A DNA stretch of 64,000 nt, from the NCBI GenBank assembly GCA_035455275.1, contig DATIFO010000045.1:2421-66420 (forward strand), read 5' to 3'. A program made the position numbers and the translations under genes. How positions within the stretch are numbered: position 1 is the first letter of the stretch; every line of letters begins with the position of its first letter. Below, piece by piece: positions 2,666 through 63,357 of this stretch. Source of the DNA: Candidatus Methylomirabilis sp. GTDB taxonomy: Bacteria > Methylomirabilota > Methylomirabilia > Methylomirabilales > 2-02-FULL-66-22. The notes beneath the pieces were generated by a model. That model was not told where the DNA came from. It did not search any database and was given only the letters and a program-made list of their open reading frames with translations.

Positions 2666-4159
2666 TCAGTGGGTGGCCGCCTTGGACGAGGTCGGCGAGG
2701 CCGCTCCGTGTCCCAGAACCGACCGGTATTCCGCGGTCCCGAAGCCCGTTCCCTGTCCGGCCGTGCCGATCAGCCCGAGCGAGTACGCGTTCTCGTTGTG
2801 CTGGCTGAGATCCAGGCCCATGACCTCGTCCTCTTCGTCGACGCGGAGTCCGATCAGCACGTCCACGATCTTGAGGAGGATCAGCGAGCCGATGAAGGCA
2901 AAGATCCACGTGGCCAGGACGCCGACGACCTGCACCCAGAGCTGCCCCGGATTGCCGAAGAAGAGCCCGTTGTTGCCGGCGTCGTTGATGGCCTTGCTGG
3001 CGAACAGGCCGGTGGCCAGGGCCCCCCAGGTCCCGCCGACCCCGTGCACGCCCACCACGTCGAGGGAATCGTCGTAGCCAAGGCGGGTCTTGAGGTTACA
3101 TGCGCTGTAGCAGAGATAGCCAGCCACCGCGCCGATGATGATGGCCGAGAGGGGCCCCACGAATCCGGAGGCGGGCGTGATCGCCACGAGCCCCGCCACC
3201 GCGCCCGAGGCCGCCCCCAGGACGGTGGGCCTGCCCCGGCTCAGCCACTCGACGAGCATCCAGGAGACCGCCGCCGCCGCCGTCGCCACGTGGGTGACCA
3301 CGAAGGCGCTGGTGGCCAGGGCACCCGAGCTCAGGGCGCTGCCGGCGTTGAAGCCGAACCATCCCACCCACAGCATGGCCGCCCCCGTGACCGTCAAGGG
3401 GAGGTTGTGCGGCGGCATGGGCTCGGAGCCGAAGCCGCGTCGCTTCCCGATGAGGAGGGCGGCTGCCAGCGCCGAGATGCCTGAGCTCACGTGGACCACG
3501 GTCCCGCCCGCAAAATCCAGGGCGCCGAGGTTTCGCAGCCACCCGCCCGTCCCCCACACCCAGTGGGCCAGGGGATCGTAGATGAAGGTGGTCCAGAGCA
3601 GCGTGAAGACCAGGAAGGCGCTGAACTTCATGCGCTCCGCGAAGGCCCCGGTGATGAGCGCAGGTGTGATGATGGCGAACATGAGCTGGTAGATCATGAA
3701 CGCCTGATGGGGGATGGTCGCAGCGTAGTCGGGGTTCGGGGTCAGGTCGACGCCGTTGAGGCCGATCCAGGACAGGTTGCCGACCAGACCGTGGACGTCC
3801 GGCCCGAAGGAAAGGCTGTAGCCCCAGAGCACCCACTGGAGGCTGACCACGGCCATGATGATGAAGCTGTGCATGATGGTGCCCAGCGCGTTCTGGCGCC
3901 GGACCATGCCCCCATAGAACAGGGCGAGCCCGGGGGCCGTCATCATGAGGACCAGGGCCGAGGAGACAAGCATCCAGGCGGTGTCGCCGCTGTCGATCTT
4001 GGGTGGAGGCGCAGCCTGCGTCGTCGCCGCGGGTGCCGTGGCGGGCGGTGCCGCCGGCGCGGGAGCGGGCTGCTGCGCCGCCAGGGGAACGGCCAGCAAG
4101 CAGAGGGCTGTGAGGAGCCCGAAGGTCACGAGCAGCCGAAGCAAACGATACCCTCCCAT
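2666..4159 (-). CDS. amtB: ammonium transporter (Amt family)
   Basis: 497 aa with a signal peptide, a Pro/Ala-rich linker and multiple TM segments. Amt motifs DFAGGTVVH and VGVHGVGGTWG are present. Confidence 0.9.
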   Translation of the reverse strand: MGGYRLLRLLVTFGLLTALCLLAVPLAAQQPAPAPAAPPATAPAATTQAAPPPKIDSGDTAWMLVSSALVLMMTAPGLALFYGGMVRRQNALGTIMHSFIIMAVVSLQWVLWGYSLSFGPDVHGLVGNLSWIGLNGVDLTPNPDYAATIPHQAFMIYQLMFAIITPALITGAFAERMKFSAFLVFTLLWTTFIYDPLAHWVWGTGGWLRNLGALDFAGGTVVHVSSGISALAAALLIGKRRGFGSEPMPPHNLPLTVTGAAMLWVGWFGFNAGSALSSGALATSAFVVTHVATAAAAVSWMLVEWLSRGRPTVLGAASGAVAGLVAITPASGFVGPLSAIIIGAVAGYLCYSACNLKTRLGYDDSLDVVGVHGVGGTWGALATGLFASKAINDAGNNGLFFGNPGQLWVQVVGVLATWIFAFIGSLILLKIVDVLIGLRVDEEDEVMGLDLSQHNENAYSLGLIGTAGQGTGFGTAEYRSVLGHGAASPTSSKAATH

Positions 4160-24654: not shown

Positions 24655-24940
24655 AATGACCAATGACAAAATCCCAATGACCGATGGCCGTAACCTGACG
24701 GGAAAGGCCGGGACTCAGCGTGGGAGCCTTGCGCCTGGACGGGAGTGTGGTTTAGGATAGACCGGAAATCAATGAAAAACCGATGTGAGCGTTCAGCTCT
24801 CAGCAATCGGCGGTCAGCTTCGGATGGGGGACGGCGGTGTTCGGCACGAGCCAAGTCGGGTACACTCTCCGGAGCTGAAGGCTGAACGCTGACTGCTGAA
24901 CGCTGAGGTTTGTCATTGTCGGTGGTCGGGTTTGTCGTTG
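24655..24940. repeat. composite nested heptamer-word inverted repeat
   Basis: Outer arms are AATGACCAATGACAAAATCCCAATGACCGATGG (24655-24687) and TTTGTCATTGTCGGTGGTCGGGTTTGTCGTTG (24909-24940). An inner hairpin has arms 24785-24823 (NTCAGCN words) and 24869-24908 (TGANNGC words). Confidence 0.65.
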
Positions 24941-30445: not shown

Positions 30446-30484
30446 CGGCGAGCCACGAGCCACGAGCCACGAGCTGCGATCGGA
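30446..30484 (+). repeat. tandem heptamer array (CGAGCCA x3 and variants)
   Basis: gcggCGAGCCACGAGCCACGAGCCACGAGCTGCGATCGG, directly after the S2P stop. It uses the same word as the arms flanking the four-helix-bundle gene. Confidence 0.6.
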
Positions 30485-30502: not shown

Positions 30503-33029
<2,527 letters not shown>

Positions 33030-33602
33030 GCGAGCCTCGAGCCGCGAGCCACGGGGGGCGAGCCGTGAGCTGCGAGCCGCGAATGGACTTGGGGGGAGGG
33101 AGGTCACGAACCGTCAGGGGTGGAGACTCCAATAACCGCGCCGGTGAAAGGAGGGTACACCATGTTTCGGTTCGAGCGTCTCAGGGTGTGGCACAAAGCG
33201 ATCGAACTTTATGAAGCGGTGGACGAGGTCAGCCGCAGGTTTCCCGGAAAGCCAGAGTTCTTTCTTTCGGACCAACTGAGGCGCGCAACCCTTTCCATCT
33301 CTTCGAATATTGCGGAAGGTTCTGGGCGAGAAACCACAAAGGACGCTCAGCACTTCTATACAATTGCGAAGGGCTCTGCCTTCGAGGTGGTCAGCATCGC
33401 CACGGTTTGCCATCGCCGTGGACTCATTTCGACTGAACACTACCGCGACATGTACGGACGCGTGGAGGACATCGCGAAGATGCTGAGCGGCCTCAAACGC
33501 GTCCAACAGACGGACTAATCCCCGCTCGTGTCATGTCGCGGCTCCCCGGTTCAGCCTTCGATAATTCGTCGCGGCTCGCGGCTCTAGGATCGAGGCTCGA
33601 CC
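33030..33602 (+). mobile_element. IVS-like cassette: four-helix-bundle ORF bounded by inverted heptamer arrays
   Basis: The left arm (33030-33086) is eight CGAGCCN-type heptamers. The right arm (33521-33602) carries the complementary NGGCTCG words. The outermost 10 nt are perfectly complementary (CGAGCCTCGA / TCGAGGCTCG). The cassette fills the whole guaB-guaA spacer. Confidence 0.5.
33162..33518 (+). CDS. four-helix-bundle protein (23S rRNA intervening-sequence protein / Avd family)
   Basis: SD AAAGGAGGG. MFRFERLRVWHKAIEL...LSDQLRRATLSISSNIAEGSGR...GSAFEV matches the family pattern (F..L.VW.KA..L, Q..RAA.SI..NIAEG). Confidence 0.9.
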   Translation: MFRFERLRVWHKAIELYEAVDEVSRRFPGKPEFFLSDQLRRATLSISSNIAEGSGRETTKDAQHFYTIAKGSAFEVVSIATVCHRRGLISTEHYRDMYGRVEDIAKMLSGLKRVQQTD

Positions 33603-33603
33603 T

Positions 33604-35136
<1,533 letters not shown>

Positions 35137-35138
35137 AC

Positions 35139-35651
35139 GTGGGTAGAGGCGACGAGGCGCATGGGAGCAAGGGCGAAGAGGATCTGCTGGACCTTGCTCA
35201 CTTCATCCTGGAGCATGATCTGCAGGCGGAGATCGTGGCGCCGGGGGCGCACATGCCGACGGTGGATGCGGCCGCGGCGGCGATGAATGTGGCGCCGGAG
35301 CAAATCTTCAAGTCCATCCTGTTCCAGTCGCTGGCGGGCCGGTGCGTCATGGTGGTGGCCTGCGGCAACGCCCGGGTGGATGTCAAGCGAGTGCAGGACC
35401 TCACGGGCATCTTCGGACTCAAGCTGGCCAAGCCGGACGTGGTCCTCGCCAAGACGGGATACCCGGCGGGCGGGACGCCGCCGGTGGGTCACCGGGAGAA
35501 GTTCCCCGTCATCGTGGATGCGGCCGTGGCGGCGCAGGAATGGGGCTACGCCGGCGGCGGCCGGCCGGAGCTCTTGGTGAAGATCAGATCCGCCGACATC
35601 ATCCGCCTGACCGGTGCGGACGTGCACAACGTCATAATCAATGACAAATGA
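35139..35651 (+). CDS. YbaK/aminoacyl-tRNA editing domain protein
   Basis: GTG start 2 nt after the guaA stop, in the frame of listed ORF 34371..35651. KSILFQ...GGTPPVGH motifs. The start position is uncertain. Confidence 0.7.
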   Translation: MGRGDEAHGSKGEEDLLDLAHFILEHDLQAEIVAPGAHMPTVDAAAAAMNVAPEQIFKSILFQSLAGRCVMVVACGNARVDVKRVQDLTGIFGLKLAKPDVVLAKTGYPAGGTPPVGHREKFPVIVDAAVAAQEWGYAGGGRPELLVKIRSADIIRLTGADVHNVIINDK

Positions 35652-35723
35652 CCAATGACAAATGACCAATGTCGGATGACCGGTATCGGTTCCCAATTGG
35701 TCATTGGGATTTGGTCATTGGGA
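35641..35723. repeat. heptamer-word hairpin (ATGACCA/ATGACAA arm versus TTGGTCA/TTGGGAT arm)
   Basis: Strict 7-nt register: atgacaa atgacca atgacaa atgacca atgtcgg atgaccg gtatcgg ttcccaa ttggtca ttgggat ttggtca ttgggat. AATGACCAAT (35661-35670) pairs with ATTGGTCATT (35696-35705). Confidence 0.7.
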
Positions 35724-35750
35724 TTTCTCAGGGGTGCCTGAGGGCTAATC

Positions 35751-38700
35751 ATGGCGCACGCGGATTTCGTTCATCTGCACCTGCACACGCAGTATTCCCT
35801 GCTGGACGGGGCCTGCCAGCTCGACCGGCTCATCGCCAAGGCCAAGGAGTATCGGATGCCGGCCCTGGCCATGACCGATCACGGCAACATGTTCGGGGCC
35901 ATCGACTTCTACAACCTGGCGGCCAAGGAGGGCATCAAGCCCATCGTGGGCTGCGAGCTGTACATGGCCCCCGGGAGCCGCTACGAGCGGACGCCGCAGG
36001 ACGGCCAGTACGAAGGGGCGAACCACATCACGCTGCTGTGCCGGGACCTCACCGGCTACAAGAACCTCATCAAGCTGGCCACCGCCGGCTACCTGGAGGG
36101 CTTCTACTACAAGCCGCGCATCGACCGGGAGTTGTTCGCCCAGCACGGCCAGGGGCTCATCGTGCTGTCGGGGTGCCTGAACAGCGAGCTGGGACACGCG
36201 CTGGTTGACAAGGACGAGGCCAAGGCCGCGCAGATCGCAGACTGGTACCTGGAGGTGGTGGGGAAGGGTAACTACTTCCTGGAGATCCAGGACCACGGCC
36301 TGGAGGACCAGCGCACCATGACCCGGGGTGTCCTGCCCCTGGCGAAGCGCCTGGGCATCCCCGTGGTCGCCACCAACGACGTCCACTACCTCAACGCGGG
36401 GGACCACAAGGCGCACGAGGTCCTGCTGTGCGTCCAGACCGGCAAGACCATGAAGGACGCGGACCGCTGGCGGTTCAGCTCGCAGCAGTTCTACTTCAAG
36501 TCCCCGCAGGAGATGCAAACCCTCTTCGCCGAGCTGCCGGAATCGCTCAGGAACACCGTCGCCATTGCCGAGCGCTGCAACCTGGAGCTGACCTTCGGCA
36601 AGATCCGCCTGCCCAGGTACACGGTCCCCGAGGGGTTCACCCTGGACTCCTACCTGCGGAAGCTGGCCGAGGAGGGACTGCCCCGGCGCTTCCCCAGCCC
36701 CCCGGCCGGGGCGGTAGAGCGGCTGAACCGGGAGCTGGCGGTCATCGAGAAGATGGGCTTCGCCGGCTACTTCCTGGTGGTCTGGGACTTCATCAGCTAC
36801 GCCAGGTCGCGGGGCATCCCGGTGGGGCCGGGCCGGGGCTCCGCCGCCGGCTCCCTGGTGGCCTACTGTCTCGGGATCACGAACATCGACCCCTTGCGCT
36901 ACGGCCTGCTGTTCGAGCGGTTCCTGAATCCCGAGCGCATCAGCATGCCGGACATGGACATCGACTTCTGTGACGAGCGGCGGGACGAGGTCATCGAGTA
37001 CGTCACGCGCAAGTACGGGGCGGACAACGTCAGCCAGATCATCACCTTCGGGACCCTGGGGGCCAAGGCGGTCATCCGGGACGTGGCCCGCGGCATGGGG
37101 ATGCCGTATTCGGACGGGGACAAGATCGCCAAGATGGTCCCCAACACCCTGAACATCAGCCTGGAGGACGCCATCAAGGAGTCCCCGGCGCTCCGCGAGG
37201 CCATCGAGAAGCGGCCCGAGGTGGCCGAGCTGATCGAGTCGGCCAAGGTGCTGGAGGGGCTGACCCGCCACGCCTCCACCCACGCGGCCGGGGTGGTCAT
37301 CAGCAACGAGCCGCTCATCGAGCACGTCCCCCTGTACAAGGGGGCCAAGGGCGAGGTCACGACCCAGTACGCCATGGGGGCCATCGAGAAGATCGGCCTC
37401 CTGAAGATGGATTTCCTGGGCCTCAGGACCCTGACCGTCATCGCCAACAGCGTGAAGCTCATCGAGAAGACGCGCGGCGTCCGGGTGGACATCGAGCAGA
37501 TCCCCCAGGACGATGCCCTGTCGTTCCAGCTCCTGGGCGAGGCCAGAACCAACGGCGTATTCCAGCTCGAATCGGCGGGGATGCGGCGGCTGCTGCAGGA
37601 CCTGCGGCCGACCCAGATCGAGGAGGTCATCGCCCTGGTGGCCATGTACCGCCCGGGTCCCATGGACAACATCCCGAAATTCATCGAGCGCCGGCACGGC
37701 CGGACCAAGGTGGAGTACGACCACCCCCTGATGGAGGCGATCCTGAAGGAGACCTACGGCATCATGGTCTACCAGGAGCAGGTCATGCGGATTGCCTCGG
37801 AGCTGGCCGGCTTCAGCATGGGGGACGCGGACATCCTGCGCCGGGCCATGGGGAAGAAGAACCCCGAGCTGATGGCGGAGCAGCGGAAGCGGTTCGTGGA
37901 CGGGGCCAAGGCGCGCGGGGTGCCCGAGCGGAAGGCGGACAAGATCTTCAGCCAGATGGAGCAGTTCGCCGGCTACGGGTTCAACAAGTCCCACGCCGCG
38001 GCCTACGCCATCGTCGCCTACCAGACGGCCTACCTGAAGGCCAACTACCCGGTGGAGTTCATGGCGGCCCTGCTCACCTCCGAGACCTCCGACACGGACA
38101 AGATCGTGAAGTACATCGAGGAGTGTCGGGCCATGGGGATCGAGGTCCTGCCCCCCGATGTCAACGAGTCGAGCAGCGACTTCACCGTGGTGGGGGACAA
38201 GATCCGCTTCGGCCTGGTGGCGGTCAAGAACGTGGGCGAGACGGCCATCCAGTCCATCCTGGCGTCGCGCCGGGACCAGGGGCGGTTCCGGGACCTCTAC
38301 GACTTCTGCGAGCGGGTGGACCTGCGCCTGGTGAACAAGCGGGTGCTGGAGAGCCTGATCAAGTGCGGGGCGCTGGATTCCCTGGGGGCGCGGCGGGCCC
38401 AGCTCATGGCCGTGGTGGACAAGGCCATGGAGGCGGCCGCCTCGACGCAGCGCGACCGGGCGCACGGCCAGGTGTCGCTCCTGGACGTGCTCTCCTCCCG
38501 GGGGGCCACACGACGCGAGTCACCGGCCCTGCCCGACGCTCCCGAGTGGGATCGGCTGGCCGTGCTGGCCGCCGAGAAGGAGACGCTGGGGTTCTACATC
38601 ACGGGGCATCCCCTGGCGGAGCACCGGGGATACCTTGCCCAGCAGGCGACCACCACCACCGAGGAGCTGGCGTCCCTGCCGGACAAGTCCACGGTGAAGG

Positions 38701-52751: not shown

Positions 52752-53639
52752 TCAGGCACGGGGGTGGTACTTGTCGTAGATGGCCTTCAGGTGGGCCCGG
52801 CTCAGGTGGGTGTAGATCTGGGTCGTGCCGATGTCGGCGTGGCCCAGCATCAGTTGCACCGAGCGGAGGTCCGCCCCCCGCTCCACGAGATGCGTGGCGA
52901 ACGAGTGGCGCAGGGTGTGGGGCGTCACCCGCTTCGTGATCCCGGCGGCGGCGGCCTGCCGCTGCATGAGGTGCCAGAACATCTGGCGCGTGAGGGCTCG
53001 CCCGCGCCGGCCGGGGAAGAGATAAGGGCTGGCGCCGCGCCTGTCCAGTTGGGGCCGTCCGCGCGTCAGGTACGCGCGCAGGCTCTCCGCCGCCACCTCG
53101 CCCAACGGCACCAGTCTTTCCTTGTTGCCCTTCCCCAGCACGCGGACGATTCCCACGGTCAGGTCCAGATCCGCCAAGCGCAGGCCGACCAGTTCCGACA
53201 CGCGTAACCCGGAGGCGTACATCAACTCCAGCATGGCTTGATCCCGCAGGGAGCGGGGGGTCGTCGGCTCGCGTGCGGTGAGGAGGCGGTCCACCTCCTC
53301 GCTGCTCAGGACGCCGGGGAGCCGCCGCCACGGCCGGGGGGACTCCAGGTGGGCCGTCGGGTCCTCCTGCGCCCGGCCCTGGCGGACCAGGAACCGGTGG
53401 TACTGCCGGATGGCCGAGAGGTGGCGGGCCACGGAGCGCGGGCCAAGACCGGCCTCGCGGAGGGCCAGGAGATACCGCGGGACCTCGGCCCGCTCCAGGC
53501 TGGTGACAGCCTTTCGTCGGGCGGTCAGGTAGGCGGTGTATCGCACCAGGTCGCGCCGGTAGGCCTCCAGGCTATTCTGGGCAAGGCCCCGCTCCACCAC
53601 CAGGTGCTCGAGGAACGCGTCGAGAAGGGGGTCCGTCAC
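52752..53639 (-). CDS. xerD: tyrosine recombinase XerD
   Basis: GTG start overlaps the upstream stop (GTGA). Motifs ARG...HTLRHSFATHL...LGHADIGTTQIYTH, with the C-terminus ...YHPRA as in XerD. Confidence 0.85.
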   Translation of the reverse strand: MTDPLLDAFLEHLVVERGLAQNSLEAYRRDLVRYTAYLTARRKAVTSLERAEVPRYLLALREAGLGPRSVARHLSAIRQYHRFLVRQGRAQEDPTAHLESPRPWRRLPGVLSSEEVDRLLTAREPTTPRSLRDQAMLELMYASGLRVSELVGLRLADLDLTVGIVRVLGKGNKERLVPLGEVAAESLRAYLTRGRPQLDRRGASPYLFPGRRGRALTRQMFWHLMQRQAAAAGITKRVTPHTLRHSFATHLVERGADLRSVQLMLGHADIGTTQIYTHLSRAHLKAIYDKYHPRA

Positions 53640-63286: not shown

Positions 63287-63357
63287 GTGGGAGAGCCGCG
63301 TGGCCGACTCGGGCGGGCTCGCGACCGGACATCCCCCCGGGGGGGAGGTGAGCGCAC

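Follow-up and report, generated by a model that had tools for sequence, protein, structure and literature searches.

The spacer between guaB and guaA in a metagenome-assembled genome of Candidatus Methylomirabilis sp. holds a compact cassette that has the anatomy of an open reading frame (ORF)-bearing 23S rRNA intervening sequence (IVS) but is placed in mRNA. The cassette lies near the middle of a 64,000-nt stretch of contig DATIFO010000045.1 (assembly GCA_035455275.1), referred to here as the window, and consists of a four-helix-bundle (4HB) gene of the PF05635 family set between two inverted arrays of tandem heptamers. This design is identical to that of genuine 23S rRNA IVSs. On balance, we lean toward reading the unit as a resident IVS-type hitchhiker, a cassette that lacks a promoter and whose arms would form a stem in the host transcript that RNase III would cut.

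One unit fills the 574 nt that separate the guaB stop codon (TAG, 33027-33029) from the guaA ATG (33604), and the coordinates given for this gap in the original prediction are confirmed. The left arm (33031-33086, forward strand) is identified from the sequence, by Tandem Repeats Finder (TRF), and by a repeat search. It comprises eight tandem CGAGCCN-type heptamers, the number originally proposed, which read in register CGAGCCT CGAGCCG CGAGCCA CGGGGGG CGAGCCG TGAGCTG CGAGCCG CGAATGG; five of the eight have CGAGCC intact ahead of one variable base, and the other three are degenerate. TRF reports 7.6 copies of period 7 with 69% matches over 33030-33082. The right arm (33569-33603, forward strand) is built of complementary NGGCTCG-type heptamers, as judged by TRF, inverted repeats, and duplex energy, and TRF reports 4.6 copies of period 7 with 80% matches over 33569-33600. 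Complementary heptamers were predicted for 33521-33602; they are present, but that range was generous, since the compact array occupies only its distal part and is joined by a proximal extra copy of GTCGCGGCTC at 33535-33544. According to TRF, each array has three or more 7-nt units arranged head to tail in non-coding DNA, as do short tandemly repeated repetitive (STRR)-type sequences.

Between the arms lies the 4HB ORF (33162-33518, forward strand; 118 aa), which is supported by profile matches, a structural homologue, and the dN/dS values described below. Its product matches PF05635 over residues 5-110 of 118 (E = 1.8e-31, 108.9 bits against a cut-off of 33.8) and TIGR02436 above the curated cut-off (E = 2.1e-28, 98.7 bits against 24). 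Residues 4-109 resemble the pentameric four-helix-bundle protein XCC0516 (PDB 2GSC, E = 9.5e-15). The PDB entry of this closest solved homologue contains five chains, and the protein has been described as a homopentamer (PMC4990558). A database protein 100% identical to that of the window is assigned to Candidatus Methylomirabilis. The ORF is preceded by a 75-nt leader (33087-33161) with a Shine-Dalgarno (SD) sequence, GGAGGG, at 33150-33155, and a 50-nt spacer (33519-33568) that contains the extra heptamer copy separates its stop codon from the right arm. The SD sequence, length, and family all agree with what was first proposed, but the ATG is at 33162 and not 33163. A second SD-like motif, GAGG (33592-33595), sits in the right arm, 8 nt ahead of the guaA ATG. 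A scan of 32800-33800 finds neither a sigma-70-like promoter nor an intrinsic terminator. The host genes are guaB (IMP dehydrogenase; 31554-33029, forward strand; PF00478, E = 5.5e-162), whose ORF is listed from 31461 with a likely ATG start near 31554, and guaA (GMP synthase; 33604-35136, forward strand; PF00958 and PF00117).

The two arms pair at the very ends of the unit. Their outer 10 nt are fully complementary, as predicted (CGAGCCTCGA, 33031-33040, with TCGAGGCTCG, 33590-33599), the 31-nt arms are complementary at 77% of positions, and none of 200 shuffles matches the arm score (z = 5.3). The duplex formed by the arms alone is valued at -63.3 kcal/mol. Folding 33020-33610, a check suggested along with the original prediction, yields a long stem in the minimum free energy (MFE) structure (z = -4.3), with pairs between 33027-33040 and 33591-33604 and between 33067-33082 and 33568-33585. 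The predicted terminal stem spans from the U of the guaB UAG, which is its first paired triplet, to the A of the guaA AUG, which is its last paired base.

IVSs that carry an S23p (4HB) ORF within 23S rRNA are known from Coxiella and Leptospira. The Coxiella IVS has three to four GACAGAT heptamers upstream of its ORF, with the number varying by strain, and a 28-bp terminal stem; excision by RNase III begins at the first repeat, and its ORF is said to be in decay and probably not translated (PMC4990558). The same package recurs in rRNA genes elsewhere. A plasmid search identifies a 4HB ORF inside the 23S rRNA gene (Rfam LSU, 2142 bits) of Azospirillum lipoferum 4B AZO_p2 (locus L163), with the left arm GGACGGA TGACAGA GGACGGA GGACAGA and the right arm TCCGTCC TCTGTCT TCTGTCA TCCGTCT. 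Four more independent 4HB ORFs, reached through metagenomic homologues of the Azospirillum protein (L173, L179, L180, and L181), lie inside large subunit (LSU) rRNA genes according to Rfam, at sites placed by eye from the flanking 23S sequence in helix 45 and helix 25. All four have inverted heptamer arrays of the words CAGAAGT, CAGAAAC, NNTCAGT, or GACAGAN, and the order of array, ORF, and inverse array is found in 5/5 rRNA-borne 4HB ORFs.

The window cassette and the rRNA IVSs share a protein family, the same order of heptamer array, ORF, and inverse array, a terminal stem that re-joins the flanking host RNA, and an array copy number that varies. The terminal inverted repeats of the cassette are computed to form a long enclosing stem, and its arms are tandem heptamers beside an S23p ORF, which are two of the features by which an IVS is recognised. 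The host, in contrast, is the guaBA mRNA operon and not helix 25 or 45 of 23S rRNA; the cassette lies between guaB and guaA, and an Rfam search of the whole window returns no match. The stem links a stop codon to a start codon where that of an rRNA IVS closes an rRNA helix. The window ORF also has a good SD sequence and is under purifying selection, whereas that of Coxiella is reported as decaying. An IVS-like architecture in an mRNA operon spacer, the central structural claim of the original prediction, is supported by the five rRNA-borne ORFs bracketed in the same way and by the Coxiella heptamers (PMC4990558), and the wider interpretation offered with it is partly supported.

The cassette is conserved at its site in related genomes. 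A 4HB cassette also separates guaB from guaA in L081 (GCA_035455345.1), L168, and L082, with proteins 81%, 65%, and 55% identical to that of the window, respectively. L081 and L168 share the word [C/T/A]GAGCCN with the window and differ from it in copy number. L082 uses CGAGTGC as its left-hand word and GCACYYG as its right-hand one, both arms being altered yet still complementary. Comparison of related genomes had been put forward as a check on the cassette, and in all three the arms are retained and the words change together. Compared with L081, the window has array identities of 81-85% and identities of 51-62% in the remaining non-coding parts, with 51% in the leader, which is poorly conserved outside the SD region, and 62% in the 3' spacer.

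Substitution rates fit vertical inheritance of the guaBA cassette across the four genomes and a gene that evolves fast but under constraint. The guaB genes diverge by dN 0.018 and dS 0.33 between the window and L081 and by dN 0.076 and dS 0.66 between the window and L082. The 4HB dN is 0.098 and 0.40 in the same comparisons, about five times the guaB dN in both tested pairs, and because of this constant ratio the cassette appears to have been inherited vertically. The dN/dS of the 4HB gene against its L081 orthologue is 0.15. An independent replacement in L082, considered in view of the 55% identity and the different word, is rejected since the 4HB dN is about five times that of guaB there just as in L081. 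In other genomes, none of 80 guaA loci has a 4HB gene at the guaB-guaA site. L001, a more distant Methylomirabilis relative and the closest species-level representative, shares 70% identity in GuaA, and its guaB-guaA spacer is 113 nt long with no ORF.

Two guaB-guaA spacers that lack the 4HB gene nonetheless hold heptamer hairpins. The L001 spacer contains a small ORF-less hairpin at 3861-3902 with the word GATGAGG. The spacer of L003, a Candidatus Binatia metagenome-assembled genome, contains an ORF-less hairpin at 3876-3984 (CAGAAGT / TTCTGAC, -55 kcal/mol), with a word that also makes up the arms of two rRNA IVSs, L173 and L179.

Beyond the guaBA site, inverted heptamer arrays are specifically associated with 4HB genes. 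The sample comprises 80 metagenomic loci with 4HB genes 41-55% identical to that of the window, and the flank test compares the 200-nt stretches on the two sides of the gene for an inverted repeat, taken as significant at z > 3. Such repeats flank 50 of the 67 4HB genes with enough flank (the window and L081 included), while 0/119 neighbouring genes in the same loci reach that score; the association that had been suggested for other 4HB genes is thereby upheld. A lag of 7 is the best self-match period in 64/71 upstream and 51/71 downstream flanks. The median arm is 32 nt long, or about 4.5 units. A terminal helix of 15 bp or longer is present in the MFE folds of 83% of the 71 cassettes and of 7% of the 56 shifted controls; the raw count of flank-flank MFE pairs is uninformative alone and is used only together with these controls.

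At least 10 different heptamer words occur among the cassettes, always matched on both sides. Lineage words include GTTGAGR/GTTGATR, which is the commonest, AGTAGAA, GCTAAGA/CAATAGC, GAGTCAAGA, and GAGTGCC. Plasmids of isolates use GGGAAAA (Nostoc), GGTGACA (Anabaena sp. 90), and AAAGCTA (Pseudanabaena), and the repeat unit of a Gemmatirosa plasmid cassette is an 8-mer. Mismatches between arms show a weak excess at position 7 of the heptamer. The 4HB ORF has a dN/dS of 0.03-0.15 in 11 orthologous or paralogous pairs and is therefore functional and under purifying selection. The family is large: a single query with the window protein matches 14,401 clusters at 50% identity (E <= 1e-3). No relatives are found in viral contigs.

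The arrays often contain stop codons. Among 49 distinct cassettes (L082-L161), stops occur in all three frames of the left arm on the forward strand in 30 and of the right arm on the reverse strand in 36, compared with 2/49 each on the opposite strands. Translation coming from either side would halt in cassettes with such all-frame stops. A general role of the arrays as all-frame stop providers is not taken as a rule, since the pattern is driven mainly by GTTGAGR and fails for several words, including the CGAGCCN of the window.

Cassettes occupy spacers in operons of unrelated function, namely guaB/guaA, sdhA/sdhB, czcB/czcA, livG/livF, livK/livH, and cas6/cas4; apart from guaB/guaA and the cas genes, these contexts are assigned by reading neighbouring protein sequences. 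Neighbours are co-oriented with the cassette in 57/69 upstream and 54/69 downstream cases, and between co-directional neighbours 40 cassettes are sense and 4 antisense (p = 1.7e-8). Packing is tight, with a median gap to neighbours, arrays included, of 55 nt upstream and 36 nt downstream. The left arm begins between -6 and +5 nt from the upstream stop codon in 20/30 loci (the window counted), and a downstream ATG falls within the terminal 11 nt of the right arm or no more than 6 nt beyond it in 19/23. This stop-to-start geometry recurs in at least five different operon contexts.

Because the promoter scan is negative, the sense bias strong, and the packing stop-to-start, we take the cassette to have no promoter of its own. 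It would be transcribed within the guaBA message, on the assumption that the two genes are co-transcribed. The arrays would then pair in the transcript, in vivo as in the computed fold, into an interrupted stem of about 30-35 bp that loops out the 4HB ORF and sets the guaB stop codon beside the guaA start; the GAGG of guaA would fall within this stem, and guaA translation might be affected. The stem is a putative substrate of RNase III, as judged from rRNA IVSs with identical anatomy. Cleavage would free a separate 4HB mRNA and limit damage to the host operon. The cassette probably entered the guaBA site before at least four Methylomirabilota genomes diverged and appears to have descended vertically since, with selection retaining its protein, a homologue of Avd, the nucleic-acid-binding accessory protein of diversity-generating retroelements (DGRs). 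As a mechanism of processing and mobility, this scheme is plausible.

Several observations weigh against the hitchhiker model. The predicted stem is interrupted, with complementarity of 77% and a 23-nt internal loop on the left arm. About 10 loci carry only the upstream array, approximately one in five cassettes has an opposite-strand neighbour, and some lie antisense inside integrase-like genes. Many of the sampled loci are mutually orthologous (for example, the sdhA-sdhB group), and the counts accordingly overstate the independent events. The array identity between genomes is perhaps inflated, since repeats align easily. Among arm mismatches, G:U-compatible pairs do not outnumber A:C pairs (53 vs 59), and complementarity at the RNA level and at the DNA level are therefore not told apart.

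The last point touches the main rival, in which the arms act on DNA as terminal inverted repeats of a non-autonomous mobile cassette, recognised by a recombinase in trans or by the 4HB protein, and RNA pairing is incidental. We consider this a possible though not a probable account, and it may coexist with the RNA model. It draws on arms without G:U bias, on the many unrelated insertion contexts (guaBA, sdhAB, czcBA, liv, cas6-cas4, and helices 25 and 45 of 23S rRNA), and on one cassette that occurs at 93-95% nucleotide identity in unrelated contexts (L147 vs L144 and L140), with homology bounded by the arrays as it runs from about 8 nt ahead of the left array to the right-array end. Integron-integrase-like genes or fragments also adjoin 8/82 4HB loci compared with 0 in 663 kb of control loci, a provisional lead that comes from a search with an approximate IntI1 query. 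The cassette, however, encodes no transposase or recombinase, and the junctions examined show no target-site duplication. Inheritance at one site has been long and vertical (guaB dS 0.3-0.7). A sense bias of 40 vs 4 is unexpected for an element that acts purely at the DNA level, and words that vary widely by lineage and among the hairpins of the window would require many cognate recombinases.

The arrays might instead be binding sites for the encoded pentamer, runs of four to five heptamers in RNA or DNA through which the protein regulates itself or acts on hairpins elsewhere, a reading that we judge unlikely. The median arm of about 4.5 units, the five chains of 2GSC and their description as a homopentamer (PMC4990558), the ORF-less heptamer hairpins of the same window (24786-24906 and 35639-35726), and the work of the homologue Avd with nucleic acid (PMC10053308) are all in keeping with it, but matching a pentamer to five units is numerology at present. 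Three words in a 64-kb window that holds a single 4HB gene, together with orthologous cassettes that change word and retain pairing, argue against it. Chance co-location, with heptamer hairpins as generic intergenic elements of the repetitive extragenic palindromic (REP) kind and the 4HB gene merely within one, is very improbable. ORF-less hairpins are indeed common: two lie in the window, the L001 and L003 guaB-guaA spacers hold one each, and 39 arrays are found in the 663 kb of unrelated control loci. Chance is nevertheless already contradicted by the control (50/67 4HB genes vs 0/119 neighbours with complementary flanks), and it leaves the arrays around 5/5 rRNA-borne 4HB ORFs and the coincidence of unit boundaries with arrays without explanation. 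The 4HB ORF is almost certainly not the Avd accessory gene of a DGR, although PF05635 is homologous to Avd (PMC10053308) and many of its homologues also match PF22296 (bAvd), weakly. Gene context already contradicts this idea, with guaB and guaA on either side and a 574-nt spacer too small for a reverse transcriptase or template repeat; the window protein matches PF05635 and not PF22296, and its relatives are absent from the viral contigs searched.

Stand-alone members of the very large PF05635 family have so far been handled as scattered hypothetical genes, some of them listed as CRISPR-Cas "associated". The fixed package of array, ORF, and inverse array unifies the rRNA IVSs with a much larger mRNA-borne set and offers a concrete, testable mechanism, a hitchhiker gene looped out and processed by RNase III in essential operons. 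It also offers a clue to why heptamer repeats are so abundant. Nostoc/Anabaena, Xanthomonas, and Azospirillum provide culturable carriers for testing. For annotators, links of 4HB genes to cas, sdh, gua, and efflux operons probably reflect promiscuous insertion.

A broader and distinctly more speculative proposal, which we would not expect to hold in full, treats stand-alone 4HB cassettes, rRNA IVSs with or without an ORF, and orphan intergenic heptamer hairpins (STRR-type repeats and the inverted GGGAATC pairs of Xanthomonas) as one system. They would form a very large IVS-type family inside host transcripts. The stems of heptamer arrays would be recognised, both in cis and in trans, by the encoded pentameric protein, which would help them to spread or persist, perhaps together with recombinases of the integron type or, as for Avd, a reverse transcriptase. 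If true, the proposal would supply a function for a protein family with at least 14,401 clusters at 50% identity and would explain the long-noted excess of heptamer repeats in bacteria.

Parts of this picture are already known, namely rRNA IVSs with S23p ORFs, the Coxiella IVS heptamers, the Avd homology, and scattered intergenic heptamers. The open-access literature, in a search with subscription journals mostly outside its reach, nowhere describes 4HB genes outside rRNA as flanked by inverted heptamer arrays and does not equate stand-alone 4HB units that bridge operon stop and start codons with rRNA IVSs. The relationship to Avd suggested in the original prediction stands at the superfamily level, Avd being small and basic, of homologous four-helix-bundle fold, and active together with nucleic acid (PMC10053308), but there is no DGR here. 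The window gene stands alone between heptamer arrays and has no reverse transcriptase, template, or variable repeat nearby.

Intergenic heptamers have been described as GGGAATC arrays in Xanthomonas, often in convergent pairs (PMC4692102), and as the TAACTGA repeats of Beggiatoaceae (PMC4679880). Like the arms of the cassette, these and the cyanobacterial STRR sequences are tandem 7-nt units that often lie between co-transcribed genes and frequently form inverted pairs, and their copy number varies by strain (PMC4692102, PMC4679880). Window-type arrays differ in that they bracket one gene family and delimit a discrete unit, and the heptamer-repeat papers draw no connection to 4HB genes. REP sequences, bacterial interspersed mosaic elements, and miniature inverted-repeat transposable elements are likewise short palindromic or inverted-repeat elements within operons, with possible roles in mRNA processing or stability. 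The cassette, in contrast, has arms of tandem heptamers with words that vary from one site to another and carries a conserved protein gene. No REP-associated tyrosine transposase (RAYT) or other transposase partner has been identified for it and no target-site duplication is seen; at its junctions, the termini are inverted, with TAGG and CCTA in inverted and not direct orientation, and no transposase is encoded, though an enzyme might act in trans.

Integron gene cassettes resemble 4HB cassettes as promoter-less single-gene units. One large 4HB lineage has arms, GTTGAGR and YCTCAAC, that look like core and inverse core sites, and integrase-like genes are over-represented near GTTGAGR cassettes. 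The 4HB cassettes, however, occur singly in housekeeping operons and are not arrayed at attI, and their arms are split around the ORF, whereas attC is one site after the ORF. The identification of the window cassette itself as an integron gene cassette is rejected: CGAGCCN / NGGCTCG are not core sites, and no integron integrase is adjacent.

The integrase-like genes and fragments adjoin GTTGAGR-type cassettes at L097, L099, L120, L140, L144, L145, L147, and L150. At L120 and L144, the cassette lies antisense in the integrase gene in place of about 68 codons, with the motifs STQNQA and LRVKDVD on either side; further integrase junctions fall at RHSFATHLL and GVKSPLD. The word GTTGAGR resembles the integron core site GTTRRRY. 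The window itself yields a single tyrosine-recombinase-like match, an ORF (52803-53339, reverse strand) that is 38% identical to the approximate IntI1 query over residues 107-315. This ORF, which probably encodes a XerC/D-type enzyme, is 20 kb away and shows no evident connection with the cassette.

Cassettes at cas loci bear on annotation. The order cas6-4HB-cas4-cas1d occurs in L165 (Anabaena sp. 90 pANA02, 1590-1660) and in L167 (Pseudanabaena). The right array of L165 (CTGTCAC x4) falls within the annotated N-terminus of cas4, and the annotated start of the Anabaena cas4 is probably too far upstream. A 4HB gene has also been recorded between cmr3 and cmr2 (PMC3936711). Insertion, and not function, may lie behind the published "associations" between 23S_rRNA_IVP and cas loci. 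At L100 (684-832), a 31-nt heptamer-array block (ACTCTCAACTCTCAACAATCAACTCTCAACT) is present three times, 59 nt apart, 3' of the 4HB gene, a CRISPR-like layout that could mislead CRISPR finders. At L170 (around 1970-2060), a truncated second 4HB N-terminus (MRNEMLGFEKLEVWHKAIDLADRIDEVTR...) sits between the intact 4HB ORF and the right array, which points to a tandem copy that has decayed within a single pair of arms.

The window as a whole is rich in heptamers, with five period-7 arrays compared with 0.8 expected from shuffles. The word CGAGCCA had been reported to occur alone near 30446-30484, and a real direct array is present there: 3.7 perfect copies at 30449-30474, just upstream of trpS and with no inverted partner nearby. 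At the equivalent position in L081 (228-286), there is an array of the same word family. A degenerate copy was also proposed at 63291-63325, where neither TRF nor a lag-7 scan detects a heptamer array. An ORF-less intergenic hairpin at 24786-24906 has inverted arrays, GTTCAGC-type on the left and GCTGAAC-type on the right, and folds at -72 kcal/mol (z = -6.4) into helices of at least 5 bp with 2x2 internal loops every 7 nt. A second ORF-less hairpin, at 35639-35726, combines AATGACC/AATGACA heptamers with complementary ones (TTGGTCATTGGGAT x2). Its position is between a gene that ends at 35651, whose stop codon TGA falls within the left array, and a start at 35752 that we take from the N-terminal sequence of the product to be that of dnaE; its word TTGGTCA is presumably the cyanobacterial STRR2 repeat.

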